NCBI RefSeq assembly: GCF_036365525.1
Contig: NC_090382.1
Span: 111,448,372 to 111,512,371, forward strand
From: Heterodontus francisci
Taxonomy: Eukaryota
Direction: 5' to 3'
DNA: 64,000 nucleotides
A program made the translations under genes and the position numbers. Positions within the stretch are counted from its first letter, which is position 1. Each line of letters starts with the position of its first letter. The notes under the pieces were generated by a model. The model was not told the DNA's origin, made no database searches, and saw only the letters and a list, made by a program, of their open reading frames with translations. Shown in pieces: positions 11,054-56,537 of this stretch.

Positions 11054-11324
11054 AATTGAAAAATGAAGAGAGATCCATCAGCCCTCCCCCAGCACCGTAC
11101 ATACGGTGAAGAAGGAAGAGAAAGGAAGGCAGGCACCCAGATTGCGGTTGCATCTCAGCCATCTTTGTCCTTCTTTCCTTCTAGTGATTCTACATTCGGC
11201 GGACATGAGATTTATCAATCATTTTCCTTTGGACTTCGCACTAAGACAGGTGGCTTTAAGTAACATCTACTTTTTACTAATATTTACACAGCAGTGCGAA
11301 TGAAAGGACGTCTTCACACAGATA

Positions 11325-13769
11325 ATGCAAACGTTATCTTTCATAACTCTGCTATACGTCTGGGATTTTGTTTCTGCCCAGATTCGGTACTCGATTCCAG
11401 AAGAACTAGAAAACGGCGCTTTTGTTGGGCATATTGCTAACGATATTGGATTAGATGTAAGGGAACTGTCCAGGCGTAGATTCCGGATCATGTCAGCTGC
11501 AAAGAGGAGGTATTTTGAAGTGAATTTAAAAGATGGTATTTTGTTTGTTAACGACAAAATTGACAGGGAGCAGCTCTGCGGTCGAAGTCTTACGTGTTTA
11601 CAAAATCTCGAGATTGTCATCGAAAATCCATTAAAACTGTACCGTGCTGAGATTGAAATACAAGATATCAATGACAATTACCCCAGTTTTTCGCAGGATG
11701 AACTACGTTTGGAGATTCTTGAGTCAACTCCACCGGGAACTCGCTTTCCACTTCAGAGCGCGCATGATCCCGACGTGGGTACAAATTCTGTTCACACTTA
11801 CATCCTCAATCCGAATAACCATTTCACATTGGATGTTCGAAACAGCAGTGATGGAACAAAAAGTGTGTATTTGTTGCTTGAGAAAGTCTTGGATAGAGAA
11901 AAACAAGCCGTTCATCACTTATTTCTCAGTGCCTTAGATGGCGCGATTCCAAAGCGATCTGGTCGTGCCCAAATTATCATCACTGTCCTTGATGTCAATG
12001 ACAACGTGCCTGTATTTGATCAGTCGGTTTATTGGGTGAAAGTGATTGAAAATGTAGTGGACAATACGTTAGTTATTGATCTCAATGCTACTGATTTGGA
12101 TGAAGGTACTAATGCGGATATAATCTACTCTTTCAGCAGTAACACCCCAGACAGAATCCGGGAACTGTTTAGTGTCGAACCGTATACAGGAGAACTCATA
12201 GTTAAAGGAATGTTGGATTACGAAAAAGCCAACGTCTATGAGATTAATGTGGAAGCTAGGGATCGGGGTCCTACTTCTGTACCTGTATATTGTAAAGTTA
12301 TAGTGGAGATCGTGGACATGAATGACGTAAAACCTGAGATGACGTTGATGTCATTATCCAGTCCCGTAAATGAAAATGCGACAATCGGGACTATGGTAGC
12401 TCTAATTAGTGTAACGGATCCTGAATCTGGAGTAAACGGTAATACTAGTTGTCATATCGCCAATAACCTCCCATTCCAGCTGAAATCGTCTTTCAAGAAC
12501 ACTTACATGCTGGTCACAAATGGTTTATTGGACAGGGAAACTGTTTCTCAATACACAATTAACGTCAGTTGTTCGGACGCTGGATCCCCTCGTCTCTTTG
12601 CCAATAAAGTCATACTAGTGGAAGTCTCAGACATTAATGACAATGCGCCATGCTTCACGAAGGCATCATACACAGCTTACGTTACGGAAAACAATACACC
12701 CGGTGCATCCATCTGCTCCATGACAGCATTTGATTCAGACCTGGGTCAAAACTCTCACATTACTTACTCCATTAGGGAGAGTCAGATTCAAGGTCTGTCT
12801 GTCATGTCCTTTGTGTCTATTAATTCAGAAAATGGTCAAATATTTTCACAGCGCTCTTTTGACTATGAGCAATTTAAAAACTTTCAAATCCACGTTCAAG
12901 TTCGGGATGCTGGAATCCCACCCCTCAGCAGTAATGCTGTTGTGAATGTAGTAATCCTTGACCAAAATGACAACTCACCTGTAATTGTATCTTCCCTGAC
13001 AAATAATGGATCGCCGGTAATGATGCCTCGATCTGCGCATCCAGGCTACCTGGTTACCAAGGTGACTGCAGTCGATGCTGATTCTGGACAGAATGCGAGA
13101 CTGATGTACCAATTGATTCAAGCTTCTGATCGGAGTCTTTTCACTGTAGCACGCAATTCGGGAGAAATCAGAACCATACGACTCTTTGAAGACAGAGATT
13201 CCGCAACACAAGTGCTTGTAATCCTAGTGAAAGACAATGGACATCCCTCCCTGTCGACTACTGTCACAGCGACGTTGTCATTGATGGATAGGACTGCTGA
13301 AATGATTTCAGGCATGAGCAATATGCCCCAAAACATTGAGCATTCCTCGAATTTGGCCATGTATATGATAATAACACTAGGGACAGTCTCATTCATCCTT
13401 CTGTTGATCATAATTGTTCTCGTTACAACCATGTGCCACAATAGCAATGATCACGGTGACGAATGTTCTCTGATCACGTGTTGCTTTAGACGTGAGATTG
13501 CGAACAATATATTGAAGAAGTCTGATGCAAACATTCGGATGGCCTCCAGTGTTCAACCAACCGCAAATTTTGTGAAAGTTTGTGGTACTGGGTCTCTCTC
13601 TGAAACATACTGCTATAATGTTCGTCCAACAACTGAACCAGAGAACAGGAACTGTGTGTTCCTCACGCCTTCCAGTTCTGCAACGCGTAGAAGCTATACC
13701 AAGAACGCTGACATGCATTTCTCAGAGTGCAGTCAGCACGTGAAACAAAGCGCTAATGTTGCCAGTGAG
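11325..13769 (+). CDS. Clustered protocadherin variable exon B
   Basis: Signal peptide, QIRYSIPEE EC1 start, six cadherin repeats, TM, cytoplasmic segment; phase-0 donor GAG|GTGAGT (GT at 13770). Confidence 0.97.
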
Positions 13770-14253
13770 GTGAGTAAAATAAATGTCTCTGCACCCATAA
13801 TATGCCCATCTACGCGAAATGATAGGCTGATGGTTTTAAAATGCGGGAAATTACTTTGAGATTTGACATTTCATCTTAATACAGACGTTATCACCTTTAC
13901 TGTGACTAAATACAAAGGTGGACGAAGAAAACAGTTTGCCAGACTTTTAACAGCTCTGTTATACTGTGTTATTTAATACATTTTCAACTTACATCAGAGC
14001 TTCCAATATGTCTGTAATAGAACCTTTTGACGTGTTTATTTGATAGTCTTCACCAATAACCTACTTACCTGAGCAGAGAGGTCAATTAACCAGAAGGCAT
14101 AGATTTAAAGTAATTGGTAGAAGAGTTGAGAAAAAACTTTTTTTTTTACCTAGAGGGTGATGGGGGTCTGGAACTCATTGCCTGAAAGGTTGCAGAAGCA
14201 GAAACCCTTGTCACATTAAAAAATATCGATATACACTTGATGCGTGTAATCTC

Positions 14254-14581
14254 GGGCGGCACAGTGGCGCAGTGGTTAGCACCGCAGCCTCACAGCTCCA
14301 GTGACCCGGGTTCAATCCTGGATACTGCCTGTGTGGAGTTTGCAAGTTCTCCCTGTATCTGCGTGGGTTTCCTCCGGGTGCTCCGGTTTCCTCCCACATG
14401 CCAAAAACTTGCAGGTTAATAGATAAATTGACCATTATAAATTGCCCCTAGTATAGGTAGGTGGTGTGGGGATGTGATAGGAATATGGAATTAGTGTAGG
14501 GTTAGTATAAAATGGGTGGTTGATGGTCGGCACAGACTCGGTGGGCCGAAGGGCCTGTTTCAGTGCTGTATTACTAAACTA
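14254..14581 (+). mobile_element. Full-length tRNA-derived SINE (HE1/V-SINE-like) inserted in a CR1 3' fragment (~14070-14690)
   Basis: A/B-box head, CR1-like tail ending CTAAACTA; the flanks read as a continuous CR1 3' region. Confidence 0.88.
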
Positions 14582-14929
14582 TAGGGCTACTGGAACTGCA
14601 AAGTGGGATGAGACAGTTTAGTTCTTTTTCGGCGGGCACAGGCACGACAGGTGGAATGGCCTCTTTCTGCGCTAATAAGTGCTCCATGTTTCTATTTACT
14701 TGGATTAACAAACTATAACGAAACAAGGTCGATATGCCTTGTACAATTTAAGACTGAATTATTAAGTGTGTTATGAATTTTGCAGTGTGGTGGAACTAAG
14801 TGGGAAAACATTCATAGAATATGGGTGTATTTTGTTCTAGTTTTCTTCCTTTGTCTTCTGGAAAAGGTGATTAATTCTGTGTCGATTTCCATAGGTGTTC
14901 GTTCTCTCTACTGCCCGACTCAGTTCAGC

Positions 14930-21749: not shown

Positions 21750-23775
21750 AAGCAACCATCTAGAGAGCATGTTATTTTAGATCTAGCATTGTGTAATGAG
21801 ACAAGAATTATTCGAAATATTACAGTAAAGGATCACTTGGGAAGCGTAATCATACTGTGATAGAATGTTATAATAAGTTTGAGAGTGATATGGTTAAATT
21901 TGAAACCAGAGTCTTAAATTTAAACAAAGCCAATTATAGCGGTATGAGGGGCGAGTTTTCTGAGATAGATTGGAATATTAGCTGAAATAGTGAATAAGGA
22001 AATGAAAGAGACATTAAACACATGTTTTATGTCTGTTTTCACAGTAGAAGATATAGATAACAGACCAAAATTTATGGGGAACCAATGGTACAATGAAATT
22101 GAAAAACTCAAAGCAATTAATATTAGCAAAGTAAAGCACTTGAAACATTAATGGGACTAATTGTCAAAAATGCACTGAATCTGATGGCCGTCACCCTAAG
22201 GATTTAAAAATCAGGTTACACAGATAGTAGGCACATTGGTTTTGACCTACTCCTGCTTCTAATTCGGACGTTCCAGAATGTCATGGATTCCAGAATGGTC
22301 TCAGTGGAACGTTGCAAAGGCAACCAATAAAGGCGGGAAACAGAAAATGGAGAACTGCAGGCCAGTAAGATGGACATTGGTAGTACGTGCCAACAGGGAA
22401 CTTGGAAAATTACAGTATGATCTGGTGAAGCCAACACGGTTTTATGAAAGAAAAATTGTGTTTGACAAATCTATTAGAGTTTCTGAGGGTGTAATTAGCA
22501 GGTCCTATAAGGGGTAACCAGTGCATATAGTATATTTTGATTTTCGGGAGACACTTGATAAGATGCCACATAAGTGCTTGTTACACAAGATTAGGAATCA
22601 TGAGATTACAGGTAATTATATTACCATGCATCGAGGATTGGTTAGTGTACAGAAAACAGGGTGAGAATAAATAGATCTTTTTCAAGATAGCAGGTTGCAG
22701 CGAATGGAATTCCATAAGGATCTGGACAGGTTGGGAGGGTTCAGTATAGCTAAAGTAAAAGCAAGTAGCATGATTTATTACCATATGCTGCATGCTCCAC
22801 AACTTTGACATACAAAGAGTAGTTGTCTCAGCTAGTTATAATCTATCTGTATGACGTAAATGAGGGGAACGAGTGTAATGTATCCAAGTTTGCTGATGAT
22901 GTGCAGCTAGGTGGGAAATTAAGCAGTGAAGAGCATGCAAAGAGGCTGCTGAGTGATATAGGCTGGTTGCATACTTAGTCAAGAAGCTAGCAGATGGAAG
23001 GATGAATTTATCCCCTTTGGTAGGAAGAATGAAAAAGCAAGATTTTTTTTAAAGACGAGACAAGAGACTAGTAAATATTGGTATTCAGAGGGGTTTGGGT
23101 GTCCCTGTACATGAATCACTGAAAGTTAACATGCAAGCAATTAGGAAGGCAATGTTATTTTATCCTTTATTGCCAAGACATTCGCGTACAAGAATAAGGA
23201 CATTGTGCAGGAATACTGTGTACAGTCTGACCCCCTTACCTACGGAAGAATATACTTGCTTCAAAAGAGGGTGGTGCTGTGCAACGAAGATTCACTAGAT
23301 TGATTTCTGAGATGAGGGGTTTGTCCTATGAGGAGAAATTGAGCAGAATGGAACTATATTCTCTGCAGTTTAGAAGAATGAGAGGTGATCTCATGTAACA
23401 TATATAATTATTAGAGGGCTTGACAGGGTAGATGCTGAGAGTCAGTTTCTCCTGGCAGAAGAATCTAGATCCAGGCATCATAAGTTCAGGATACGGTTTT
23501 GGCCATTTTGGACTGAGATGAGGAGAAATTCCTTCACTCAGAGGGTTGTGATTTGTTGGAATCCTCTGGCTCAGAGAGCTGTGGATATTCAATCCATGAG
23601 TGCATTCAAGACTGAGATCGGTATATTTTGGGGTATTAAGAGAATTAAAGAATATGGGAATAGAGTGGAAAGTGGAGTTAATACAGAAGTTCAAACACAA
23701 TCATATTGAATGGTGGAGCAGGCTTCATGGAGTACGTGGACCACTCCTGTTCCAATTTCTTATGTGTTTATCTTC
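21750..23775 (+). mobile_element. Highly degenerate CR1 LINE
   Basis: SKFADD codons at ~22883-22900; CR1-type 3' region (CWNPL, FKTEI) and tail near 23750. Confidence 0.7.
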
Positions 23776-23806
23776 TTATGATGAGCTGCTGAGCAGTGCA
23801 GAAGTA

Positions 23807-25285
23807 TTCCCCTGTCAGCATTCCGAAGGGATCGTTCCCTCCGTGACACCCTGGTCCAATCCTCCATTACCCCCACCACCTCATCTCCTTCCCTTCCTCG
23901 ACTTCTCTGTCTCCATCTCTGGGATTGACTGTCTATTAATATCCATTATAAACCCACCGACGCCCAAAGCTACCTCGACTACACTTCTTCACACCCTGCC
24001 TCCTGTAAGGACTCCATTCCAATCTCCCAGTTTCTCCATCTCCGGCACATATGCTCTGATGATGCTACCTTCCAAGACAGCGCTTCTGATATGTCTTCCT
24101 TTTTCCTCAACCGAGGATTGCCTACCCCCACCCCCCCCCCCCCCCCCACACTGTGGTTGACAGGGCCGTCTACCGTATTCGGCCCATTTCCCGCACCTCT
24201 ACCCTCACTTTCCACCCCATCAGTCTCCATATCCAAAGGATCATCCACTGCCATTTCCGCCACCTCCAGTGTGATGCCACTACCAAACGCATCTTCCCCT
24301 CCGTTCCCCTGTCAGCATTCAGAAGGGATCGTTCCCTCCGTGAGACCCTGGTCTACTCTTCCATTACCCCACCACCTCATCCCCTTCCCACGGCACCTTC
24401 CCCTGCAATCGCAGGAGGTGTAATACCTGCCCATTTACCTCCTCTCTCCTCACTATCCCAGGCTCCAAACACTCCTTTCAGGTGAAGCAGCGATTTACTT
24501 GTACTTCTTTCAATGTAGTGTACTGTATTCTCGGCTCACAATGTGGTCTCCTCTACACTGGGGAGACCAAACGCAGACTGGGTGATCATTTTGTGAAACA
24601 CCTCCGCTCAGTCCACAAGCAGGACCCCGAGCTTCCGGTTGCTTGCCAACTCAACACACACCCCTGCTCTCATGCTCACATCTCTGTCCTGGGATTGCTG
24701 CAGTGTTCCAGTGAACATCAACGCAAGCTCGAGGAACAGCATCTCATTTATCGACTAGGCACACTACAGACTGCCAGACTGAACATTGAGTTCAATAATT
24801 TCAGAGCATGACGGGCCCCCCATTTTACTTTCATTTTTAGTATTTTTTTTCCTTTTTTATATATATATTCTTTTGTGTTTATTTTATTGTATTTCATCTT
24901 AGTTTGTTCAGTTTGCTTACCCATTGTTTTTATTTCATGTTTGTACTTGCTGCTGTTCAATTTTCAGTCCGTTAACACTGAATCTGTACGAATGCTTTGT
25001 CTTTCAACACACCATTAACTTATGTTTGCTCCATGCCTTTCTGGTCAGCTATTCTGTGACCTTGTCCTATCTACGCCTTCTTCTTTGTTATCTCTTGCCC
25101 CACCTCCACTTTACTTGCTTATAACCTTTTACATTTCTAATATTTGCCAGTTCTGAAGAAGGGTCACTGACCTGAAACGTTACCTCTGCTTCTCTCTCCA
25201 CAGATGCTGCCAGACCTGCTGAGTATTTCCAGCATTTCTTGTTTTTATTTCAGATTTCCAGCATCCACAGTACTTTGCTTTTTAA
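23807..25285 (+). mobile_element. 5'-truncated Penelope-like element: RT thumb remnant, GIY-YIG endonuclease, pseudo-LTR
   Basis: LPFLDFSV..HYKPT..SYLDYTSSHPASCKDSIP (frameshifted); 24482-24811 FTCTSFNVVYC..CGLLYTGETKRRL..H...EQHLIYRLGTL...LN; 10-bp target-site duplication TGCAGAAGTA (23797-23806, 25286-25295). Confidence 0.9.
25146..25189 (+). ncRNA. Putative minimal type I hammerhead ribozyme in the PLE pseudo-LTR
   Basis: CTGAAGA-A-GGGTCACTGACCT-GAAACGTT: CUGANGA and GAAA boxes flanking a hairpin. Confidence 0.6.
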
Positions 25286-29872: not shown

Positions 29873-32800
29873 CATATAGAACACAGAACATAGAACAGTA
29901 CAGCACAGTACAGGCCCTTCGGCCCACGATGTTGTGCCGAACATTTAACCTACTCTAAGATCAAACTAACTACCTACGCTTCATTCCACTATCATCCATG
30001 TGCCTATCCAAGAGTTGCTTAAATGCCCCTAATGTATCTGCTTCTACTACCACCGCTGGCAGCGCATTCCACGCACCCACCACTCTCTTTGTAAAGAACC
30101 TACCTCTGACATCTCCCCGAAACCTTCCTCCAATCACCTTAAAATTATGCCCCCTGGTGATAGCCCTTTCCACCCTGGGAAAAAAATCTCTGGCTATCCA
30201 CTCTATCTATGCCTCTCATCATCTTGTACCCCTCTATCAAGTCACCTCTCATCCTTCTTCGCTCCAATGCGAAAAGCCCTAGCTCCCTCAATCTTTCTTT
30301 GTAGGACATGCCCTCAAGTCCAGGCAGCATCCTGGTAAATCTCCTCTGCACCCTCTCTAAAGCTTCCACATCCTTCCTATAATGAGGCGACCAGAACTGA
30401 ACACAATATTCCAAGTGTGGTCAAACCAGGGCATTATAGAGCTGCAGCATAACCTTGCGGCTCTTAAACTCAATCCCCCTGTTAATGAAAGCCAAAAGAC
30501 CATACACCTTCTTAACAACCCTATCAACTTGGGTGGCAACTTTGAGCGATCTATGGACATGGACCCCAAGATCCCTCTGTTCCTCCACACTACCAGGAAT
30601 CCTGTCTTTAAGCCTGTATTCCGCATTCAAATTCGACCTTCCAAAATGAATCACTTCACACTTTTCCAGGCTGAACTTCATCTTCCACTTCTCAGCCCAG
30701 CTCTGCATCCTGTCAATGGCCCGTTGCAACCTACAACAGCCTTCCACACTATCCACAACTCCAGCAACCTTCGTGTCATCGGCAAACTTGCTAACCCAGC
30801 CTTCCACTTCCTCATCCAAGTCATTTATAAAAATCACAAAGAGCAGAGGTCCCAGAACAGATCCTTGTGGAACACCACTGGTCACCGAGCTCCATGCTGA
30901 ATACTTTCCATCTACTACCAACCTCTGACTTCTATGGGCGAGCCAATTTTGTATCCAGACAGCCAACTTTCCCTGAATCCCATGCCTCCTTACTTTCTGA
31001 ATGAGCCTACCATGGGGAACCTTATCAAACGCCTTGCTAAAATCCATATACACCACATTCACTGCTCTTCCTTCATCAATGTGTTTTGTCACATCTTCAA
31101 AGAATTCAATAAGGCTTGTGAGGCATGACCTGCCCCTTACAAAGCCATGCTGACTGTCTCTTATCAAACCATGCTTTTCCAAATAATCATAAATCCTGTC
31201 TCTCAGAATCCTCTCCAATAATTTGCCCACTACCGACATAAGACTGACTGGTCCATATTTCCCAGGGTTATCCCTATTCCCTTTCTTGAACAAGGGAACA
31301 ACATTTGCCACCCTCCAATCATCCAGCACTACTCCAGTGGACAGTGAAGATGCAAAGATCATCGCCAAAAGCGCAGCAATTGCTTCCCTCGCTTCCCGTA
31401 ATATCCTTGGGTATATCCTGTCTGGCCCCGGGGACTTATCTGTCCTCATATCATTCAAAATTTCCAGCACATCCTCCCTCTTAACCTCAACCTGTTCGAG
31501 CATATCAGCCTGTTCCACGCTGTCCTCACAAACGACCAGGTCCCTCTCACTACTGAATACTGAAGCAAAGTATTCATTTAGGACCTCCCCTACCTCCTCC
31601 AACTCCAGGCACAAGTTCCCTCCACTATTCCTGATCGGCCCTACCCTCACTCTGGCCATCCTCTTGTTCCTCACATAAGTGTAGAATGCCTTGGGATTTT
31701 CCATAATCCTACCCGCCAAGACTTATTCATGTCCCCTTCTAGCTCTCCTCAGTCCATTCTTCAATTCCTTCCTGGCTACCTTGTAACCCTCTGGAGCCCT
31801 GTCTGATCCTTGCTTCCTCAACCTTAAGTAAGCTTCCTTCTTCCTCTTGTCATCCAAGGTTCCTTCACCCTGCCATCCCTTCCCTGCCTCATCGGGACAA
31901 ACCTATCCAGCAGTCGCAGCAAGTGCTCCCTAAACAACCTCCACATTTCTGTCGTGCATTTCCCTGAGAACATCTGTTCCCAATTTATGCTTCCCAGTCC
32001 CTGCCTAATAGCATTGTAATTCCCCCTCCCCCAATTAAATATTTTCCCATCCCGTCTGCTGTTGTCCCTCTCCATGACTATAGTAAAGGTCAGGGAGTTG
32101 TGATCACTATCACCGAAATGCTCTCCCACCAAGAGATCTGCCACCTGGCCTGGTTCGTTGCCAAGCACCAAATCCAACATAGCCTCCCCTCCAGTCGGCC
32201 TATCTACATATTGAGTCAGGAAACCTTCCTGGACACACCTGACAAAAACTGCTCCATCCAAACTATTTGCACTATGGAGGTTCCAATCAATATTAGGGAA
32301 GTTGAAGTCACCCATGACAACAACCCTGTTACTTTTGCACCTTTCCAAAATCTGCCTCCCAATCTGTTCCTCCATGTCTCTGTTGCTATTGGGGGGTCTA
32401 TAGAAAACTCCTCACAAAGTGACTGCTCCTTTCCTGTTTCTGACTTCCACCCATAATGACTCAGTAGACAAACCCTCCTCGACGACCTCCCTTTCTGCAG
32501 CTGTGATACTATCCCTGATTAGCAATGCCACTCCCCCACCTCTTTTACCTCCCTCCCTATTCCCTTTGAGACATCTCAACCCTGGAACATCCAACATCCA
32601 TTCCTGCCCCTGTGATATCCACGACTCTGTAATGGCCACAACATCGTAGCTCCAATTACTGATCCATGCTTTAAGTTCATCACCCTTATTCCTGACACTT
32701 CTTGCGTTAAAATAGACACACTTCAATCCATCATACTGGCTGCAACTTTGCCCTGTCAACTGTCTATCCTTCCTCACAGACTCTCTGCACTCGGTATCCG

Positions 32801-33780
32801 CCTGTTCAACAGCTACCCCATCCACTGATCTGTAGCTCCGGTTCCCATCCCCCTGCCAAACCAGTTTAAACCCTCCCGAAGAGCTCTAGAAAAACCTCCC
32901 GCCCAGGATATTGGTGCCCCCACCCCCCCCCCCCCCGCCCCAGTTCAGATGCAACCCGTCCTTCTTGTACGGGTCCCACCTTCCCCAGAAGGTATCGCAA
33001 TGATCTACATATCTGAATCCCTCCCTCCTGCACCAGTTCTGTAGCCACGTGTTCAGCTGCATTCGCTCCCTGTTTATAGCCTCACTAGCACGTGGCACCA
33101 GTAACAATCCTGAGAATACTACACTGCTAGTCCTGCCTTTCAGCTTCCAACCTAACTCCCTGTATTCACTTTTCAGGTCCTCATCCCTTTTTCTGGCTAT
33201 GTCATTGGTACCGATATGTACCACGACATCTGGCTGCTCCCCCTCCCCTTTAAGAATCCTGTAGACTCGATCCGAGACATCCCTGACCCTGGCACCCGGG
33301 AGGCAACATACCAGCCGGGAGTCTCGTTCGCGACCACAGAATCTCCTGTCTGTTCCTCTAACCACTGAATCTCCTATCACTATCGCTCTCCTATTCTCCC
33401 CCCTTCCCTTCTGAGCCACTGGGCCAGGCTCAGTGCCAGAGACCTGGCCAATGTGGCTTTCCCCTGGTAGGTCGTCCCCCTCAACTGTATCCAAAATGGT
33501 ATTTTTATTATTGAGGGGACGGCCACAGGGGATCCCTGCACTGTGCGTCTATTCCCTTTCCCTCCCCTGACGGTCACCCAGCTACCTTTATCCTGTAACT
33601 TAGATGTCATTACTTCCCTATAACTGCTCTCTATCACCCCCTCAGCATCCTGAATGATCCGAAGTTCATCCAGCTCCAGCTCCAGTTCCCTAATGCGGTC
33701 TGCGAGGAGCTGGAGTTGGGTGCACTTCTCACAGGTGAAGTCAGCAGGGACACCAGTGGTGACCCTCACCTCCCACCTCA
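29873..33780 (-). mobile_element. Near-full-length CR1 (HER1-like) LINE: ORF1 zinc finger/coiled coil/SGNH esterase, ORF2 APE-RT
   Basis: ORF1 CEKC..LELELDEL and IVIGDSVVR..CLPGA..VHIGTND..DGLHLN (32886-33781); APE YFNARS, ITESW, MGDFN, SDH (31824-32825); RT QHGF, YMDFSKAFD, GVPQGSVLGP, FADD (30421-31719); TTCT(A/G)TG-type repeat tail. Confidence 0.95.
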
Positions 33781-34874
33781 CACCTTCTGCAATTCAGTGT
33801 TGCTGCCTGTAGGTGTCTTCCCTGCCTCTTGGGCTTTCTGGTGCCATTACTCTCTGCCTTCTCAATGGACTCAACTGATTCCAGAATTTTTGAGGCTGGA
33901 CCGCCCCCGAACACCCCAAACTAGTGGTTGATGAAACTTTCATTCCTCTGCCTGCCTGCTCAATAAAATAGCTTTTCTCAAAGTCAGATCTTCTTTTGGC
34001 TGAACCTGATCTGTCATCTATAACCCTGACTACTATTTTGTCCCAAATCAGTTTGTCTCACATACTCCCGTAGTTGCAGTCCTCAGCTACTTTTTACAGG
34101 TCATTAATAAATGAATCGATACTTGCACCAGCTTTTTGGGTTCACTTGCTGAACTTATTCCTTTCCACGATTATATTCTTCCTCATCTGAAAGTATTCCT
34201 CCAATGTTTAAATCACTTTGCCATATGGGGTTTCTTTTTTGTCGATCCCCAGGGTAGTCAGAATGTCATCCGCACTGTCTCCCATGTCATAAAGCAAAAC
34301 ACTGACCTGTTCTTGGTCCGGTTGTGCTGTTAAACCCGATGGGGAATGGTACCTGTCGAATCTTTGAATCCATCTAGACTGCGCTTCAGCCTGGTCGGGC
34401 CCCACCACTTGCTTAAAGCTCTCTGGTAAAGGTAGAGACTTTGACATATTTGTTATCTCTTCTGTTTTCTTATGCTGCAAAAGTCTTTTTTTTTTGCCGC
34501 TGCCACCATGAATTATATTGTCAGTGTGATATTAGTATTAAATGAGGATTGTAGAATTTGGGTCAAAGTAACAGGAATTTATTTGCAGGGGTCTTCTCAC
34601 TAAGTTATCTACTTGAACACTGAGTAGCACGGCTTAAGGTCTACGTACATAATCTACCCAGCAACAAGTTATGTCCAGGAACATCTCCATCTGCAAGGGT
34701 AAGTTGAATGATAGCTCCTGGTTTACACTGTTGTGTATTTGCCTTATTATTCTGATTACTGGGAGCTAAGTGGAGTTTCTGGAACAAAAGTGTAAACAGG
34801 AGACAAGAATTGCCCTGGGAAAGCTGATTTCTAAAAGCAGCAGTAGTTTATCATTTATCATTTGTGAGGATAAA

Positions 34875-36501: not shown

Positions 36502-36548
36502 GTGTAATTATTGGCAAAGACTCTCTGTGTCGCTGTCTACCAATGAGG
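36502..36548 (+). promoter_or_regulatory. CSE of variable exon C promoter
   Basis: GTGTAATTATTGG-CAAAGACTCTC-TGTGTCGCTGTCTACCAATGAGG, ~260 bp upstream of ATG 36791. Confidence 0.9.
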
Positions 36549-36790
36549 CGCTAAAATGCTGCAAGCGATCTATCCCCCCTCCCCCAATACTACGCATAAT
36601 GCAGAAACAGAGAGGAAAACAGACTCTCACTATTTGTAATCGTACATCGGAACCGTCTTTTCTGGTACTCTGATTCCTATGTATTCCGTTTTGGTTGGTA
36701 TATACTGGATATCAGTAACAGTTTTTGTTTTGGGTGGAGTGTAAATTATTTTTGCATCACTGTGAATGCAACTGCGAATTCGGACAGAGA

Positions 36791-39226
36791 ATGCAAGCTT
36801 TGTTTACAGTTTTCCTGCTTTGTGTCTGGAATATCGTTTATACTCAGATTCGTTATGCTATTCATGAAGAATTGAAGCATGGTGCCTTCGTTGGGAACAT
36901 TGCTCAAGATCTGGGGCTGGATGTAAGACAGCTGTCTCGTCGCAGGCTCCGCATAATGTCTGCAGTAAGAAAACGGTATTTCGAGATTAATTTAGAGAAT
37001 GGCGTTTTGTTTGTGAATGAAGTGATAGACAGGGAGTACGTGTGTAGGCAGAGTCCTACTTGTTTTATGAATCTGGAGTTTGTAGTAGAAAATCCATTGG
37101 AACTCTATCGTATTGAAGTGGAGATACTAGATATAAATGACAATTCCCCCAGTTTTTCGAATGCTGAGATCCGTTTGGAGGTCCTAGAATCAGCGCCACC
37201 GAGAACTCGTTTCCTTCTTCAGAGTGCCCATGATCCGGACTTGGGCATCAATTCTGTCCGCATTTATTATCTCAGTCCAAATGAACATTTTGCTTTAGAA
37301 GTACAGAATAGCGGGGATGATAGTAAGTTTGTCCACCTACAGCTGGAGAAATACCTGGACAGAGAACAACAGGCAATTCATCGTTTACTTCTGACTGCCG
37401 TTGACGGAGGTTCCCCAGAGAGAACTGGTACAGCCCAAGTTATCGTCACTGTCCTCGATGTCAATGACAACTCTCCTGCATTTGACCAGACGTTCTTTAA
37501 AACTAGCTTAATGGAAAATGTACCGATAGGTACTGCAGTTATCAAATTAAATGCCACCGATCTGGACGAAAGCACTAATGCAGAGATAGTGTATTCTCTC
37601 AGTGACCTTACTCCTAGCACGATCCGCGAACTTTTCAGTATGGACTCCCAAACAGGTGAAATTATAGTAAAGGGGATTGTAGACTTTGAAGAAGCCAAGA
37701 CTTATGAAATTATAGTAGAAGCCAAAGACAAAGGTCCATTTGCACTCCCCGTGCATTGCACTGTCCTCATAGACATCAACGATGCCAATGATAATGCCCC
37801 CGACATGACTCTGATGTCAGTATCCAATTCGGTTCGTGAGGATGTACATTCTGGAACTGTGATCGCGCTAATCAGTGTCACCGACCAAGATTCTGGGGAT
37901 AACGGACTCACTACCTGCCTGATTCAGCCCAACCTACCGTTTGAACTCAAATCGGCTTTTAAAAATTCGTACACTGTTGTTATCAAGCACGCACTGGACA
38001 GGGAAACTACGTCTGAATACCAAATTGGGATCTCTTGCCATGACTCCGGATTTCCTCCTCTATCCACAAATAAAACTATTCAAGTGCAGATATCAGATGT
38101 AAACGACAACCCACCGCGCTTTGCAGATAGGTTGCATACTGCATACGTGATGGAGAATAACGCTTTTGGGGCTTCTATCTGCTCGGTGTCCGCTTTTGAC
38201 CCTGACTTGGGTCCAAACTCCCACCTTTCCTATTCCGTTCTCGACAGCCTGGTTCAAGGTGCCTCCATCTCATCGTACGTCTCTATCAATTCAGAGAACG
38301 GGATAATCTATTCGCAGCGCTCCTTTGATTACGAACAGCTCAAGAATTTCCAGATTAACGTTCAAGTGCAGGATGCTGGCTTGCCTCCACTCAGCACTAA
38401 TCATACAGTGAACGTAGTCATCCTGGATCAAAATGACAATGCACCTGTAATCGTATTTCCGCTAACAAACAATGGGTCCGAAGTAACCATTCCTCGAATA
38501 GCAGATCCTGATTACTTGGTGGTCAAGGTCATTGCTGTTGATTCCGATTCTGGGCAGAACGCACGATTGTTTTATCAGCTTCTCCAAGCTACCGATCAGA
38601 ATCTTTTCACTATGAGGATTAACTCGGGAGAAGTAAGGACGACCCGTCAAATTAACGACAGAGATGTCGCAACACAGATGATGGTCATATTGGTAAAAGA
38701 CAATGGGCATCCACCTTTATCTACCACTATCACCATCACACTCGCAATAATAGACAGTTTTGAAGACGTCATTCATGCCGTTACATTCATGCCTAGAGTC
38801 CCTGATGATCCCTCTAGTACAGCCTTTTATATAATTATATCGTTAGGGGCAATCACACTTACACTAATGCTGGCCCTAATTGCGCTCGTGATCACAATTT
38901 GTCGCAGTGCAAGCAATGATGAGGACTGGTGTTGGTGTTTTGAACATAACGATTCAGATACGATATATCAAAATTCCAATCCAAATTTTCACACGGTGCC
39001 AGACTCCAGTCTAATTAAAAATGTTATTGAAGTGCGTGGATCTGGTTCTCTTGCTGAAACGTACTGTTATACTCTTCGGTCTGCTCCAGAATCGGTTAAA
39101 AGCGATTCCAAGTTGCTGTCACAGTTAAATGCAGCATCCGCCAGATACCAATCTGATGCTGCTGACAGATATTATTCAGACTGCAATGTAAAAGAAATGG
39201 ACAACACGACAATTTTAGCCACTGTG
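36791..39226 (+). CDS. Clustered protocadherin variable exon C
   Basis: Start at MQALFTVFLLCVWN (aligns with the signal peptides of B and D); six cadherin repeats, TM; phase-0 donor GTG|GTAAGT (GT at 39227). Confidence 0.96.
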
Positions 39227-41202: not shown

Positions 41203-41822
41203 TTCATCGGTCGGGGCATTGAGTATAAAAATTCGCAAGTCATGCTGCAGCTGTACAGAACCTTAGTTAGGCCACACTTGGAATATTGCGTATAATTCTG
41301 GTCGCCACACTACCAGAAAGATGTGGAGGCTTTGGAGAGGGTACAGAAGAGGTTTACCAGGATGTTTCCTGGTCTGGAGGGTATTAGCTATGAAGAGAGG
41401 TTGGATAAACTCGGATTGTTTTCACTGGAACGACGGAGGTGGAGGGGTGACCTGATAGAGGTTTACAAAGTTGTGAGTGGCATGGACAGAGTGGATAGTC
41501 AGAAGCTTTTTCCCAGGGTGGAAGAGTCAGTTACTAGGGGACATAGGTTTAAGGTGCAAGGGGCAAAGTTTAGAGGGGATGTACGAGGCAAGTTTTTTAC
41601 ACAGAGGGTGGTGAGTGCCTGGAACTTGCAGCCGGGGGAGGTGGTGGAAGCAGGTATGATAGCGACATTTAAGAGGCATCTTGACAAATACATGAATAGG
41701 AAGGGAATAGAGGGATATGGACCCCGGAAGTGCAGAAGGTTTTAGTTTAGACAGGCATCGTGATCGGCGCAGGCTCGGAGGGCCGAATGGCCTGTTCCTG
41801 TGCTGTACTGTTCTTTGTTCTT
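41203..41822 (+). mobile_element. CR1 LINE 3' fragment
   Basis: ALERVQKRFTRM..LFSLERRR.RGDLIEVYK..FFTQRVVSAWN; GTTCTTT tail. Confidence 0.9.
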
Positions 41823-41979
41823 TGTTAATTGGCTGTCTCCCGTAATATTGTGCAGGCAGGCAGACCATTGACATAAGCTGGGTTAGGACCTGGAACTGGC
41901 CCTGCCGCCCATGAATTATAAAAGTCCTGAAGATTACATCCTTGGTCACTTTTACCGACAGCAATTATTTACAGTCATA

Positions 41980-44900
41980 GTCATTTCTGGCAGAGAAGGA
42001 GGTCATTTGACGCATCGAGTCTATGCTAGCTGTCCACAGAAAATGTGGCCCTGCAAGTTTATTTCCTTCAATTGTCCATCCAATTTATTTTGAAATCATT
42101 GTTGCCTCTGCATCCACCACACTTGTGGGCAGCGAGTTCCAGGTCATTATCACTCGTAGCATAAAAAAAGTTTTTCCTCATATTCCCCCTGCGTCCTTGT
42201 ACCATCATTTAACAGGAACAGTTTTTCCTTATCCAACTTATCCAAGTCTGTCGTAATCATGTACACCTCTATCAAATCTCCCCTCGATCTCTCATGCTCC
42301 AAGGAGAACAATCCCAACTTTTCCAACCTAATCTTGTAACTAAAATTCCCCATCCCTGGAACCATTCTGGTAAATTCCCTTTGCGTCGTCTCAAGGACCC
42401 TCACATCCTTCCTAAAGTGTGGTGACCAGAACTGGACATAATACTCTAATTGGGGCCTAACCAGAGCTTTATAAAGGTTCAGCATTACTTCCCTGCTTGT
42501 GTACCCAATGCCTCTTTTTATGAAGCCCAAGATCCCATATACATTGCTAACTACTCTCTCAATATGTCCTGCCACCTTCAAACATTGATGCACCTGCACC
42601 ACAGGATCCCCTGCTCCTGCACACTCTTTAGACCTGTGGTATTAAGTCAACCTATCCCTTCTGTCAAAATGCATCACTTGTCTGTTTTAAATTCCATCTG
42701 CCTCTTGTCTGCCCAGTCTGCTAGCCTATCTATGTTCTGCTGCAGGTGGTTCATCCTCACTGTTTGCCACTCCTCCAAGTTAGGTATCATTGGTTAATTT
42801 TGAAGTTCTATTGTGTATTCCATGATTCAAGTCATCCATGCCTGGACTGGAGGGCATGTCTTAAGAAGAAAGGTTGAGGGAGCTAGGGCTTTCCTCATTG
42901 GAGCGAAGAAGGATAAGAGGTGACTTGATAGAGTGGTACAAGATGATGAGAGGCATAGATAGAGTGGATAGCCAGAGACCTTTTCCCAGGGTGGAAAGGG
43001 CTATCATCAGGGGGCATAATTTTAAGGTGATTGGAGGAAGGTTTCGGGGAGATGTCAGAGGTAGGTTCTTTACATAGAATGCACTGCCAGCGGTGGTAGT
43101 AGAAGCAGATACATTTGGGACATTTAAGCGACTCTTGGATATGTCCATGGATGATAGTGGAATGAAGGGTATGTAGGTAGTTTGATCTTAGAGTAGGTTC
43201 AAAGGTCGGCACAACATCGTGGGCTGAAGGGCCTGTACTGTGCTGTACTGTTCTATGTTCTATATGTAGAAAAAAAAACAGTGGACCTAGCACTGACCCT
43301 TGGAGAACACTTCATACTTCATACTTCAGACTGAAAAACAACCATTTACCATGACTTGCTGTTTTCTGTCCTTAAGCCATTTTTTTTATCCAATTGGACA
43401 CTGACCCTCCTATTCCGAGCCTCAATTTTGTTAATCAGCCTTTTATGTGGTAATTTATGAAACCCTTTCTTAAAATCCATAGAGACAACATCCACTACAT
43501 TCCCTTCATCAACCTTCTCTGTTACTTCATCAAAAAATTAATTACATTAGTCAAGCATGTTCGAGTTCTGAAGAAGGGTCACTGACCCGAAACGTTAACT
43601 CTGCTTCTCTTTTCACAGATGCTGCCAGACCTGCTGAGTGGTTCCAACATTTCTTGTTTTTACTCCATTTTACTAATCTGTGCTGGCTATCCTTAATTAA
43701 CACAAAACTCTCCAAGTGCCTGTTGATTTTTTTTCCTTAACTATTGTTTATAAATCCTTACCCACCACAGATGTTGAATTAACTAGCCTGTAGTTGCTAG
43801 GACTGTCGTTACACACTTTCTTGAACAAGGGTGTCACATTTACCACTCTCCAATCCTCTGGGACCTCCCCCACATCTAGGGAAGATTGAGAGATTATGGC
43901 AAGCCCTTGCACTATCTCCACCCTCACTTCCTTTAGCAACCTAGGATGCAAGACATCCACATCAGGTGGCTTATCTACTCTAAGCATAGCCAACCTTTCC
44001 AGTACCTCCTCCCTCTCAACTTTAACCCTATCCATTCCCTGTACTCTCTCCGCTTCAACCGATATTTTGTCAGATTCCTCTTCTTTAGTAAACACCAATA
44101 CAAAGTACTTATTAAGTATTACAACCTTGCTCTGTCCCTGTAAGCATATATCATCCTCATTGTCCCTAATAGGCCCCACTCCACCTCTTACTACCCGCTT
44201 ACTGCTTACATGCCTGTCAAAGATTTTTGGGTTCTCTTTTATGTTGACTGCCATTCTCATATTCTCTTTCCCAGTCTTATTTCCTTCTTCATCTCCCCTC
44301 TCAACTTGTTGTGTTTGGCCCGGTTCTCACTTGAATAATTCACTTGACATGGATCCTCTTATATGTCATCATAATCTGTATCTCTCTCATCAGCCAAGGA
44401 GCCCTATTCTTGGTTCCCCTACCTTTCACCCTTGTTGGAATGTACCTTTCCTGTACCTGAAACATAGTTTCCTTAAAGATAACCCATTGTTCCATTGCAG
44501 TTTTTCCTTTCAATCTTTGATTGCAATTTATCCTGGCTAGATCCCTTCTCATCCCATTGAAATTCGCCCTCTTCCAATCTTTTTGGGAGTTGTTCCACCT
44601 TACATTGTTCCTTGCTTTTCTGCATTTTGAGTCTAAACCTTATGATAGGATGATCACTCTTATCTAAGTGTTCCCACACAGACACTTGTTCCACCTTATT
44701 TCTCAGAACCAGATCCAGAAGTGCCTCCTTTCTAGTTGGGCTGAGAATATACTGGTCAAGGAAGTTCTCCTGAACACAAACCAGAAATTCCTCCCCCTCC
44801 TTTTACTTTGTCTAAATTATCCCAATTGATATTTGGGTAATCAACGTTCCCCAATATCACCACTCTATACTTCTTGCACATCTCTGTGATTTCCCTGCAG

Positions 44901-45170
44901 ATTTGCTCCTCTATCTCTCACTATTTGGAGGCCTACAGCATACCCCTAGTAGCGTGATTTTGCTTCTCACCTCTAACCAAATGGATTTTGTCCTTTACCA
45001 TCAATGACATCCCCTCTTTCCAACACTACAATGTCTTCCCTCATCAGCACTGCCACCCCATCCCCCATTTTTCTTTCTCTATGTTTTCCGAACGCTTTAT
45101 ATCTATGTATAGTAAATGTCCAGTCCTTACCATTTTTAAGCCACATTTCTGTTATTGCCACTCCATCACA
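41980..45170 (-). mobile_element. Older CR1 LINE with nested CR1 3' fragment (42838-43265, +) and PLE fragment (43563-43660)
   Basis: ORF2 remnants at 44973-45200 (AITEMWL), 43748-44260 (PEDWRVVNVTPLFKK) and 42150-42602 (LVRPQLEY..FWSP). Confidence 0.85.
43563..43601 (+). ncRNA. Putative minimal type I hammerhead ribozyme (best-preserved copy)
   Basis: GAGTT-CTGAAGA-A-GGGTC(ACT)GACCC-GAA-ACGT-T-AACTC: stem I GAGTT/AACTC, stem II, palindromic ACGT stem III. Confidence 0.65.
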
Positions 45171-45336
45171 TTCCCAAATTTTGTTTTTAATTAAATTCAA
45201 ATTCTAAAATCAGCATGATGAGATTTGAACTAATAATGTACTGGATTATTTGTTCATTGCTCTGGATTTCTAGGCTGGTAACATAACCATTAGACTACCA
45301 TACCCATGCAGGTGAACTAAGGATGAAGAAGGGTCT

Positions 45337-46709
45337 TTGACCCTCTATGTTGCTTTCATTGATCTCACCAAAGACTTTGACCTCGTCAGCAGAATTGGTC
45401 TCTTCAGACTACTAGAAAAGATTGGATGCCCACCAAAGCTACTAAGTATCATCACCTCATTTCATGACAATATGAAAGGCACAATTCAGCATAGCGGCAC
45501 CTCATCAGACCCCTTTCCAATCCTGAGTGGCGTGAAACAGGGCTGTGTTCTCGCACCTACACTGTTTGGGATCTTCTCTCCCTGCTGCTCTCACATGCAT
45601 TCAAGTTCTCAGAAGAAGGAATTTTCCTCCACACAAGATCAGGTGGCAGGTTGTTCAAGCTTGCCCATCTAAAAGCGAAGACCAGAGTACGGAAAGTCCT
45701 CATCAGGGAACTCCTCTTTGCTGATGATGCTGCTTTAACATCTCACTCATGAAGAGTGCCTGCAGAGCCTCATCGACAGGTTTGCGGCTGCCTGCAATGA
45801 ATTTGGCCTAACCATCAGCCTCAAGAACGTGAACATCATGGGACAGGACGTCAGAAATGCCCCATTTATCAATATCGGCGTGCATGCTCTGGAAGTGGTT
45901 CAAGAGTTCACCTAACCAGGCTCAACTATCACCAGTAACCTGTCTCTCGATGCAGAAATCAACAAGCGTATGGGAAAGGCTTCCACTGCTATGTCCAGAC
46001 TGGCCAAGACAGTGTGGGAAAATGGTGCACTGACACAGAACACAAAAGTCCAAGTGTATCAAGCCTGTGTCCTCAGTTCCTTGCTCTACGGCAGTGAGGC
46101 CTGGACAACGTATGTCAGCCATGAGCAACGTTTCAATTCATTCCATCTTCGCTGCCTCTGGAAAATCCTTGGCATCAGGTGGCAGGACTGTATCTCCAAC
46201 ACAGAAGTCCTCGAGGCGGCCAACATCCCCAGCATATACACCTTACTAAGCCAGCAGCGCCTGAGATGGCTTGGCCATGTGAGCCGTATGGAAGATGGCA
46301 GAATCCCCAAGGACACATTGTACAGCGAGCTCGCCACTGGTACCAGACCCACCGGCCGTCCACGGCTCCACTTTAAGGACGTCTGCAAATGCGACATGAA
46401 GTCCTGTGACACTGATCACAAGTTGTGGGAGTCAGTTGCCAGCGATCGCCAGAGCTGGCGGGCAACCATAAAGGCGGGGCAAAAGCATGGTGTGTCGAAG
46501 AGACTTAGCAGTTGGCAGGAAAAAGGACAGAAGTGCAAGGAGAGAGCCAACTGTGTAACAGCCCCGAGAGCCAATTTTGTCTGCAGCACCTGTGGAAGAA
46601 TCTGTCACTCTAGAATTGGCCTTTAGAGCCACTCCAGGCGCTGCTGCACAAACCACTGACCACCTCCAGGCGCTTACCCATTGTCTCTCGAGACAAGGAG
46701 GCCAAAGAA
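45337..46709 (+). mobile_element. RTE-clade LINE, 5'-truncated
   Basis: FIDLTKDFDLVSR..IGCPPKLL..GVKQGCVLAPTLF, LFADD, LLYGSEAWT, RLRWLGHVSRM..RIPK..LY.EL, terminal C..CGR.C.SRIGL.SH. Confidence 0.92.
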
Positions 46710-52595: not shown

Positions 52596-53804
52596 TGATA
52601 ATGCTTTCTAAATGGCCAAATAGGATTAAGTATCACTATCAATAGTTCTGTAGTTCTGTAACATAAGAAAACGTTAAGCAACTGATAGGTGTTATATTAT
52701 CAACATATTGTGTGTTTTTTAACTGATGCAAACTCAAGCAATTGTATCAGTTTTGAATGTTCGTTTGTCCGTATCTGTCCCTTTTTTGTTGTGACCTTAC
52801 AGTCAGATAAGGATCGTCTTAAAATGACACTTGGTTTGGGTTATTGTGCTCAACCTGACAACTTTTCTTCTCTGCCAGCATTTTAAAAGCTTGGCTGCCC
52901 TGTTGATGCATTCTGCCTGACAAGTTTTCTTTTACGTAGCTGCAGTCAACATCAACTTTAGCAGTGCATTGTTTGATAAATGTACTGATAGAAAAATCCT
53001 AGACCTGTACGTTGGGAAACATTTATTTTGATTAAATAAAGTAGCACCATCTTGAATACAGCGGAAATAAAATTAAAACTGTGGTCCTTGCTCTGGAGAA
53101 CGAAATTAACTTTCCAGTAAATATTGTCTTTAACTTCTTGTCCTTGTTTTTGACTGTATCTGGAATATTAAACAGTGTAGGCTAACTGCACATTCCGCTT
53201 TGCTTTTATTTGCCAGAGATTTTCGACAACGGTGTCAACGCAGCAGCGAAGTGGTTTCCCAGTAATATTTTGATATTCCTGAACTGTTGTAGACAAACTG
53301 TTGTCCGGGCTAGGAGCAATTGACTATACTTTAAAGTACTGGCTTTAAACATATACAATGTTCGTGAACAAAGTAAGGATATCTAATACCGCAAAATGCT
53401 AGGCGATTATGATTTCTGCTGGACAAAATGGGTGCTTTCAATTACATTTTAAAAGCCGAGAAGTCAGCAAGATACTGTAAATAGTTAAACTTCAAGTTCA
53501 GTTAGCTTAACTAATTAATGAAAAGGAAACTGGCAGTAAGAGTTCTGGACTCACAATAACGTTTCTGGGAGTTTTATCTTCGCCATTGCTTTTCAGGAAC
53601 TGACGAACACAGTAGCGGGAATGATTTCCACTGCACAGACGAAATTAAATCTGACTGTTAAAATTTTAAAAGAAATAGAAATACAGTAGAAACGCTGTGC
53701 AGATTCCGTGTAACGTAGGCATATATAAACCTTTTACTTTTACCGAAACTGCATGCCAAATGACAACTTCCTTCTGCACTGTTGACGCAGTAGACGACTG
53801 TGCC

Positions 53805-53851
53805 GTGCAATTATTGGTGGAGACTCTTTGTGTCGCTGTGTACCAATGAGG
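53805..53851 (+). promoter_or_regulatory. CSE of variable exon D promoter
   Basis: GTGCAATTATTGG-TGGAGACTCTT-TGTGTCGCTGTGTACCAATGAGG, ~260 bp upstream of ATG 54093. Confidence 0.9.
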
Positions 53852-54092
53852 TACTCAAAATACTGCCAGAGATCCATCACTCCTCCCCCTTACACCACGT
53901 ACAACGAAGAAACAGTGTTTACATTCACATCCAACAGCCATCTTTCCCATACAATCTTTCTCAACTGTTAGGAACGGATACCGAGTATTCATCGCGATAT
54001 TTTGGATCTTACACTGCATACAGGTGGTTGCCGCAATTTCTTGGTTTGGATTCCTACAGCACTCCGAATGCGAGGACTAATTCAGTCAGAGA

Positions 54093-56537
54093 ATGCTAGC
54101 GTGGTCTTTTATTTTACTGCTTTGTATCTGGAAAAATGTCTCTGGACAGATCCGCTATTCAATTCCTGAAGAGCTGGAGCACGGAGCCTTTGTTGGGAAT
54201 GTCGCCAGGGATTTAGGCTTAGACGTGAACGAGTTAGCTAATCGCAAGCTTCGGTTAATGTCTGAGACCAATGAGCGGTATTTTAAGGTAAACTTAGATA
54301 ACGGAGAGTTGCGTGTGAATGTTAAGATAGACAGAGAGAAACTCTGTGGACAAAACGCTAAATGTGTTCTTACTAATGACATTATAATAGAAACTCCTGT
54401 GGAACTCTACAGCGCTGAAGTCGAGATATTGGATATAAATGATAATTCACCCAGTTTTTCGAATGATGAGCTCCGTTTGGAGATCGTGGAATCAGTTCCG
54501 CTGGGAACACGCTTCCTGCTCCCTAGCGCGCACGATCCGGACGTGGGCACCAATTCCATCAGCACTTACCATTTGAACGCAAATCAACTCTTCGCTTTAG
54601 AAGTGAAGAACAGCAGCGACGGCAGTATAACTGCTGTCTTAGTGCTGACGAAGGCTTTGGACAGGGAAGCGCTGGCGACTCATCGATTACTTCTGACAGC
54701 TATTGACGGCGGAATCCCGGTGAGATCTGGCACTTCCCAGATCATCATTACTGTTCTCGATGTCGACGACAACTGGCCGGTATTCGACCAGGCAGTGTAC
54801 AAGGTGAAGCTACCGGAAAACGTGCCAATAGGTACTTTGGTTATCAAACTCAACGCCACTGATTTGGACGAAGGTTCAAATGGGGACATAAGCTATTCCT
54901 TCAGCAGCAGTACCCCGGCTAGAGTACGTGACCTCTTCAGCCTCGGGTCCAAAGTGGGAGAAATGAGAGTCAAAGGGGTACTCGACTTTGAGGAGAACAA
55001 TCTTTATGAGATTAACATTGAAGCAAAGGACAGTATTCACTTTGCAGTTTGCAAAGTTATAGTGGAGATAATTGACGTGAATGATAATGCACCCGAGGTA
55101 ACATTAATGTCAGTATCTACCCCGGTCCGAGAGGATGCCCAGCCTGGGACTGTAGTCGCTTTGATGCGTGTAACGGATCGAGACTCCGGAGTAAACGGAC
55201 AGTCTCAGTGTCAGATTCCACGTGACCTACCATTTAATCTCAAAACATCTTTAAAGAACACATATACACTGACCACCAGTCATACTCTGGACCGAGAGAT
55301 GGCTTCTCAATATACGGTTAACATAGTCTGCACTGATACAGGATCTCCTCCTCTCCCCACCAACAAAACCATTGTGGTTCAGATTTCAGATATTAATGAC
55401 AATGCACCACGTTTTTCACAGCTTTCCTATACAGTTTATGTCCCCGAGAACAACCCTGCTGGTTCTTCTATAGGTTCTGTCTCCGCTTTGGACCCGGATC
55501 AGAACCTGAATTCACATGTCGTTTATTCAATTCTGAACAGCCCAATTCATAACATGCCTGCATCAGCCTACGTTTCAATTAACTCAGGCACCGGGGTCAT
55601 CTATTCCCAACGATCGTTTGACTACGAGCAACTCAAAAACTTTAAGGTCCATGTTCAAGCGCGGGATGCTGGATTCCCTACGCTTGACAGCAACGTGACT
55701 GTGAACGTCATTGTTTTAGATCAGAACGATAACACCCCTCAAATCATTTCGCCATTGACCAAGAACAATTCTGGAATAAATTTGCCTCGTTCTGCGGACC
55801 CGGGCTCCCTCGTGACCAAAGTGATGGCTGTGGATGCAGATTCCGGCCAGAATTCTCGTTTGTCTTACCAGTTGCTCCAAGCCACTGATTCTGGCCTGTT
55901 CACCGTAGCACACAGTTCCGGAGAAATCAGGACCATTCGTCGTTTCGTGGAAAAGGACGACCCCATTCAGAAACTCGTTGTTCTGGTGAAAGACAATGGC
56001 CACCCATCCCTTTCCTCCACGGTTACCATCAGCTTATTAATAACAGACAGTGGCTCAGAAACTCTGTCAGACCAAATTCCGCAACCCCCGGACATTCGCC
56101 CTACTTCTAATTTAGCTTTCTATTTAATAATCACTTTGGCTTCAACCTCCTCTATTCTTCTTGTGGTTCTAATCGTCCTCATTGTGACCATGTGTCATTC
56201 TGATAGAAGTAGATCTCGTTGTTGCGAATCTTCCCCCTCATGCTGCAATTTAAAACCGTGGGATACGAACGACACTTTTCCAAGTTCCCATCTATATCTT
56301 CAAACTGTACCCGATTATAAAGGAAGCCCCCACTTCGTTGAGTTAGTTGGGAATGGGTCGCTCTCTCGAACATACTCGTATAAAGTTCGTCCAAATCAAT
56401 TATCAAGTAAGGGGGATTTCGTCTTTTTAACGCCATACAATACAGCAACATTGCAAAATGACGCGGCAAATACTGACACACTTCTGGCAGAATGGAGAGG
56501 GGAGTTAACAAATAATTGGAAAAATCCACATTCTGAG
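54093..56537 (+). CDS. Clustered protocadherin variable exon D (last variable exon before the constant region)
   Basis: Signal peptide, six cadherin repeats, TM; phase-0 donor GAG|GTGAGT (GT at 56538). Confidence 0.97.

Follow-up and report, generated by a model that had tools for sequence, protein, structure and literature searches.

Promoter choice and splicing are the usual explanation for the diversity of clustered protocadherins. At the level of translation, the scanning model holds that a share of the ribosomes starts at a weak upstream ATG (uATG) and the rest at the main start, and stress-regulated switches of the ATF4 type make use of an inhibitory upstream open reading frame (uORF) that overlaps the coding sequence (CDS). 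uORFs that overlap the CDS out of frame (oORFs) and are subject to leaky scanning have been described for NF1, NF2 and IRF6, and new upstream AUGs that form overlapping ORFs near the CDS are normally selected against, according to the sections consulted of PMC7253449. The role of the conserved sequence element (CSE) and of CTCF in promoter choice of the clustered protocadherins is treated in the part of PMC4978886 used here. We have analysed a 64,000-nt window of the horn shark Heterodontus francisci (contig NC_090382.1, positions 111,448,372 to 111,512,371, forward strand), which carries three complete variable exons of clustered protocadherins, here called B, C and D. Each of them has an out-of-frame uATG at exactly the same distance from its main start codon, a feature that is real and old, apparently undescribed, and of a common kind.

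The uATGs at 11300 (B), 36766 (C) and 54068 (D) each lie exactly 25 nt 5' of the main ATGs at 11325, 36791 and 54093. A preliminary description of this DNA had given these coordinates, the spacing, the lengths and ends of the reading frames and the bases at -3, all of which proved exact on rechecking. The -3 base is C, T and C at the uATGs of B, C and D and A at all three main ATGs, and no uATG has a G at +4. All three have the structure of an oORF: an upstream, out-of-frame ATG with no stop before the main ATG. Since the uORF frames terminate 76–115 nt past the main ATG, ribosomes that translate them would be unable to restart there, and the first ATG to follow each stop is again out of frame. 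The arrangement resembles the oORFs of NF1, NF2 and IRF6 described in PMC7253449 in having a uATG less than 50 nt from the CDS, out of frame, with a stop inside the CDS and no restart; it differs in that the shark site is of weak context, ancient, present in three paralogues and not a disease variant, and is known here from sequence. As in the ATF4 type, an inhibitory uORF would overlap the CDS, and B even combines a short upstream ORF with the overlapping one. However, there is no conserved short first uORF, that of B being 32 aa long and unique and D being devoid of one.

Identical spacing in three exons is not a product of independent chance, which would give an expected 0.0015 shared offsets in 228 nt. 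The copies are not independent, because B, C and D are paralogues of one clade, and neutral divergence is thus the fair baseline. Their long ORFs carry Cadherin, Cadherin_2 (EC1) and Cadherin_C_2 (tail) domains in one exon that ends at a GT donor, and the first 130 aa of D are 100 % identical to the H. francisci record P0003. In a quick tree (SH-aLRT support, no bootstrap) of 140 EC-region units cut from chondrichthyan proteins among the matches listed (120 of 1540 in one search), the three exons fall into a mu6/mu7/mu8 clade of 34 rows (98 % SH-aLRT); next to it stands a clade of 38 rows that includes mu3 and mu5. B groups with elephant-shark mu6, C with mu7 and D with mu8 (99 % SH-aLRT each; names taken from records P0031, P0078 and P0025). 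PMC2926608 gives EF693954 as the accession of the elephant-shark cluster. On these protein comparisons, B, C and D are the horn-shark orthologues of the elephant-shark clustered protocadherins mu6, mu7 and mu8, and the triplication predates the chimaera-shark split, since each exon groups with its own elephant-shark gene. That split dates to about 400 million years ago. As the exons belong to one clade, the three uATGs go back to one inherited event, and the uATG would have been retained in three paralogues for roughly 400 million years. The locus otherwise conforms to the mu subcluster of cartilaginous fishes, with a large variable exon per isoform, a CGCT-box promoter, a 3' donor and one-to-one orthology.

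The block immediately upstream of the main ATG is conserved well beyond the uATG. From -36 to -1 the three exons are identical at 20 of 36 positions (56 %), compared with 23 of 133 four-fold degenerate sites (17 %; Fisher p=1.6e-5), which argues that the block is under selection. Between -72 and -37 only 5 of 36 positions are identical in an ungapped comparison. Every 100-codon bin has four-fold sites close to saturation, and the first (3 of 16) shows no excess. Within the block, GAATG is the longest stretch shared by all three exons; the distribution of identities over codon positions (8, 7 and 5 of 12) is uninformative. Constraint on the block is clear from these counts, and constraint on the ATG itself is not isolated from it.

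DNA of orthologues was read indirectly, from the main-frame protein text upstream of the ATG in 12 gene models, six of which are colinear with the untranslated region (UTR) and informative; the other six were set aside as spliced. Glu-Cys occurs at codons -9/-8, at an unchanged distance from the ATG, in five of the six (two catshark B genes and the C genes of a carpet shark, a skate and a stingray). This text (GAR-TGY) fixes four of the five GAATG bases as well as the spacing. In C, codons -17 to -8 are identical to those of skate and stingray at 10 of 10 positions, whereas the signal peptide reaches 14 and 13 of 18, and paralogue-specific features of the UTR are common to sharks and rays. For D, contigs from 4 of 24 runs were compared over 801 nt, and D is ~94 % identical to two other sharks. 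Among the differences listed relative to two more distant sharks, in a listing that omits 29 difference rows, there is 1 change in the last 76 nt of the leader vs 10 in the preceding 102 nt (p=0.025, with a boundary chosen after the fact, which lowers its value as support), and 11 changes occur in 153 nt of CDS but none at the uATG.

We infer from this pattern that the uATG is used and attenuates translation. The weak-context uATG would take a share of the scanning ribosomes, the rest reaching the adequate-context main ATG by leaky scanning, and the result would be a lower output per mRNA for the three isoforms, perhaps with some nonsense-mediated decay. As new overlapping uAUGs are normally selected against, a useless site would hardly be expected to persist so long in three lineages, which points to a brake that is wanted or at the least tolerated. 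A leaky-scanning attenuator was one of two readings offered in the preliminary description; it is our leading explanation and conflicts with none of the data, and we consider the chances about even that the target of a presumably purifying selection on the block is such a tuned pair of start sites. Several observations weigh against it. At 56 % per-site identity there is a ~17 % chance of three identical bases, and the ATG is no better conserved than the block. There are other, unconserved uATGs in B (-120, also -262 and -277) and C (-112 and -192, also -235 and -248), and 2–7 upstream ATGs in each of three loci with bony-fish-like leaders, the yield of a metagenome pattern scan that found no shark DNA; such leaders therefore tolerate uATGs. 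D has no upstream ATG between -247 and -25. Nor is the uORF stop conserved, since it follows main-frame codons. In elephant-shark mu7 the text is Glu-Arg, with one codon more, and the uATG is lost at the homologous site. Moreover, protein text does not distinguish GAA from GAG and leaves the first A of the orthologues' ATG unread, the comparison covers only those models whose main frame is open, and two models judged to be spliced (P0131@1744 and P0160@2629) would count as losses if they were genomic. Finally, the UTR of B matches those of catsharks at 6 of 10 and 5 of 7 codons and is no better conserved than the signal peptide (13 of 18).

The most serious competitor, and a real possibility, is that the block is conserved for another reason, such as a DNA- or RNA-binding site or the context of the main start, the weak uATG being a tolerated passenger. 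Conservation well beyond the ATG, at 20 of 36 positions and over as much as ~76 nt in D or ~50 nt in C, fits this explanation, as do the absence of the ATG at the site in elephant-shark mu7 and the occurrence of GAATG twice, 25 nt apart, in C and D. On the other hand, it is GAATG itself that forms the longest identical run, the block has no stable RNA fold (z -0.08, -0.62 and +1.67), and it holds no full TEAD-type GGAATG[CT] site. A REST/NRSE site was likewise rejected: the best half-site matches (9, 8 and 10 of 14) are at background level, with 333 sites of at least 10 in the window, and two half-sites at canonical or 5–10 nt spacing would be required (background from the part of PMC2926608 consulted).

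The uORFs are not of the conserved-peptide kind: none of the three peptides gives a Pfam hit, that of B ends at a different stop, and beyond residue 9 the CDS dictates their likeness. An N-terminal extension of the CDS in the main frame is blocked by stops in B and D. B alone has an in-frame 32-aa uORF (11205..11303, +), whose TGA stop overlaps the -25 ATG. This stop looks recent, since catshark B reads Cys at its position and the frame continues into the CDS (P0054, 58-aa leader). A 25-nt tandem duplication of the start region was also considered and discarded, with 9, 11 and 9 of 15 matches (null 0.064, 0.004 and 0.064) and a likeness that falls short of 25 nt. C contains an imperfect 12-nt tandem repeat at 36759–36782, 9 of 12 positions being alike by eye, with the uATG in the first copy; a small duplication may have created the uATG of C.

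A different line of evidence concerns the origin of the short leaders. All statements on the older leader are based on protein records; for the sister clade, 29 of the 38 rows were used, after duplicates and internally shortened or spliced rows had been dropped. A Met lies 18 residues before EC1 in 33 of 34 rows of the mu6/7/8 clade, the exception being a fused gene model. In the sister clade the leader starts with Met at -29 in 22 of the 27 rows that are long enough, and has Arg at -19 and Lys at -18 in 20 of 29 rows each. The Met of mu6-8 coincides with this Lys, one base change apart. By this comparison the 18-aa leaders of mu6-8 are derived from a ~29-aa leader, and a Lys codon was probably the source of the new start. 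P0047 shows an independent parallel swap, with Met at -18 and Ile at -29. Other shark mu leaders with independently shifted starts are those of P0085 and P0051 (Met at -20), P0094 (18 aa) and P0157. Start-codon turnover in signal-peptide n-regions is common to mu6-8 and these other mu genes; mu6-8 differ in that the old leader would also have been frameshifted and that its remnant remains conserved.

A post hoc scan compared every frame of the block with profiles of leaders and matched best in the third frame at -17 to -3, a stretch that resembles leaders starting M-A-N-S-D-R (P0200) or M-R-H-S-D-R (P0083); a T>A change at 54086 in two other sharks turns the D version into T-N-S-D-R. Against 82 distinct shark leaders (from 86 of 105 rows), offset -17 is the best (p=0.0024 for the maximum over offsets, from 5000 column permutations), and each of the four highest-scoring offsets belongs to the third frame. 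A first scan gave 0 of 400 permutations, and 8 of 400 without mu3. A third-frame relic of a longer leader is thus moderately supported and would explain the conserved TTC...CAGA pointed out in the preliminary description, which falls in the N-S-D-R codons. The tests agree on frame and disagree on register, so the old start may have been at -20, -29 or -32; at each candidate register the uATG is an out-of-frame ATG across an Asn codon plus the next G. A main-frame relic (F-x-Q-R vs sister F-x-L-R-K) is weak (null fractions 0.33, 0.077 and 0.034) and could possibly be the downstream half of a one-base-deletion model.

These results suggest a scenario in which, before the chimaera/shark split, the mu6/mu7/mu8 ancestor cut its ~29-aa leader: the Lys codon 18 residues before EC1 turned into an ATG, the former start was lost by decay, and a deletion that shifted the frame stranded the leader's first codons in the third frame of the present 5' UTR. 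The -25 ATG would be an out-of-frame ATG in or just before this relic, and the segment would then have been triplicated. That remains of the old leader supplied the ATG, later selected as an attenuator and kept in three paralogues, is a tentative proposal. Speaking against it, the relic tests are post hoc, a wider scan with the sister profile gave 158 of 3000 permutations (p=0.053), and with an outgroup profile (29 of 3000) the best register was another third-frame offset, -26. The proposal predicts that a Cys-to-Tyr change one codon upstream in elephant-shark mu7 is TAT, giving a compensating out-of-frame ATG at -32.

The preliminary description had itself suggested that the uATG may be the old start codon, fallen out of frame; by our count, such a shift would take a net deletion of 8 nt. 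It was right to expect derived 18-aa leaders and apparently also remains of a longer one, but because the apparent relic lies in the third frame and not in that of the uATG, the uATG is probably not the old start, and we regard this version as unlikely. In its favour, the leader has become shorter (~29 to 18 aa), and the uORF-frame register G-R-L-H-T is like mu3-type leaders and comes second best with the mu3 rows alone. However, the codons after the uATG do not match residues 2–6 of full-length leaders and rank 17 of 22 in the 82-leader profile (65 and 87 of 114 registers in the wider scan), the mu3 register requires two separate deletions, and the third frame scores far better, so that a relic in the uORF frame was rejected.

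Neutral carry-over, be it through slow shark evolution or through old gene conversion of the 5' segment, would make selection unnecessary but appears still more improbable. Sharks change slowly, as the similarity of D to the two other sharks illustrates, and the B UTR shows no excess over the signal peptide in catsharks. Against this stand the nearly saturated four-fold sites, the poor conservation just upstream of the block and the paralogue-specific UTR features shared from sharks through rays, and gene conversion is described as limited in the elephant shark in the part of PMC2764143 consulted.

Two contigs from probable RNA runs, X5 record 25 (53805–54520, 0 gaps) and X12 record 2 (53865–54520), span the D leader across the uATG, with no joint with GT..AG ends listed across that leader. 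The X12 contig measures 2723 nt, and 2697 nt separate its 5' end from the splice donor, so it would stop ~26 nt past the donor, as a spliced-RNA assembly might; this is a hint only. A further point on the negative side is that the RNA status of the two runs is a guess (0 of 24 runs are recorded as RNA) and that the contigs lack strand and 5' end. Location of the uATG within an unspliced leader is nevertheless moderately supported. That the uATG lies outside the mature mRNA, owing to transcription start below it or to removal of a leader intron, is very improbable: an acceptor-like pyrimidine-rich AG occurs near -34 in B and D and antisense transcription could equally give the cover, but this AG is absent in C and, from a Pro codon there, in catshark B, the two contigs bridge the D leader, and the core promoter lies ~210–290 nt upstream of the uATG.

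This promoter corrects the earlier statement that the remainder of the 5' UTRs is not visibly alignable. A block of ~80 bp about 235–315 nt 5' of the main ATG is conserved, with 79–80 % identity for B-C and B-D, and contains ATTATTGG, TGTCGCTGT, CCAATGAGG and a C-rich box, for some of which we assume the labels CCAAT and GC-box. The order ATTATTGG, CGCT box, CCAATGAGG, C-rich box is fixed in all three exons, each of which has its own CGCT, at about -289, -260 and -259. The CCAAT word itself holds an ATG common to the three exons. Further downstream, GCCATCTT, which we take to be YY1-like on the minus strand, is found in the leaders of B (11158–11165) and D (53937–53944), C having CCGTCTT at 36653. 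ACAGGTGG, presumably E-box-like, is common to B (~11244–11252) and D (54021–54028) where the strongly conserved proximal part of the leader begins, and is absent in C. At 53911–53912, D is without ~24 nt found in the close relative X12 and in the paralogues B and C, X16 having similar insertions; the gap is a deletion particular to the horn-shark D leader, judging from this alignment. The blocks match the CGCT-box CSE of clustered protocadherin promoters in other vertebrates, as given in the part of PMC4978886 cited above.

If the overlapping uORF is indeed conserved for its function, it adds translational control for a defined clade of isoforms, and if it re-uses an old leader, clustered protocadherin dosage gains a translational layer atop promoter choice. 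The locus is also a dated example of signal-peptide start-codon turnover with the old leader apparently still readable. General interest is limited, the mechanism being common and the clade restricted to cartilaginous fishes. Among the titles and abstract beginnings searched, none mentioned uORFs in clustered protocadherin leaders; Yu et al. 2008 and supplements were outside this scope and may describe them.

Table 1. Positions in the window of the variable exons and of the elements upstream of them
Feature	Position	Strand	Remarks
Promoter block of exon B	11012..11090	+	inverted CCAAT (ATTGG), CGCT-box CSE, CCAAT, C-rich box
Promoter block of exon C	36507..36585	+	cross-exon conservation
Promoter block of exon D	53810..53889	+	cross-exon conservation
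Conserved -36..-1 block of B	11289..11324	+	uATG 11300; putative third-frame relic 11308-11322, T-S-S-H-R
Conserved -36..-1 block of C	36755..36790	+	uATG 36766; putative relic 36774-36788, A-N-S-D-R
Conserved -36..-1 block of D	54057..54092	+	uATG 54068; putative relic 54076-54090, T-N-S-V-R
Overlapping out-of-frame uORF of B	11300..11440	+	46 aa, no Pfam hit
Overlapping out-of-frame uORF of C	36766..36867	+	33 aa, no Pfam hit
Overlapping out-of-frame uORF of D	54068..54169	+	33 aa, no Pfam hit
Variable-exon CDS B, mu6 orthologue	11325..13769	+	18-aa leader, cadherin repeats, GTGAGT donor at end
Variable-exon CDS C, mu7 orthologue	36791..39226	+	GTAAGT donor at end
Variable-exon CDS D, mu8 orthologue	54093..56537	+	GTGAGT donor at end
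Preceding variable exon, 3' part	2..1372	+	start outside window

Adjacent variable exons are wrongly fused in many public gene models of sharks and rays, some of which splice into these leaders or read through them (P0125, P0131, P0140, P0147, P0158, P0160 and P0163-P0200). Between the variable exons of the window, open-frame fragments at 23600–24808, 30361–33793 and 41296–46623 have the look of LINE-type retroelements, an impression gained from their translations.

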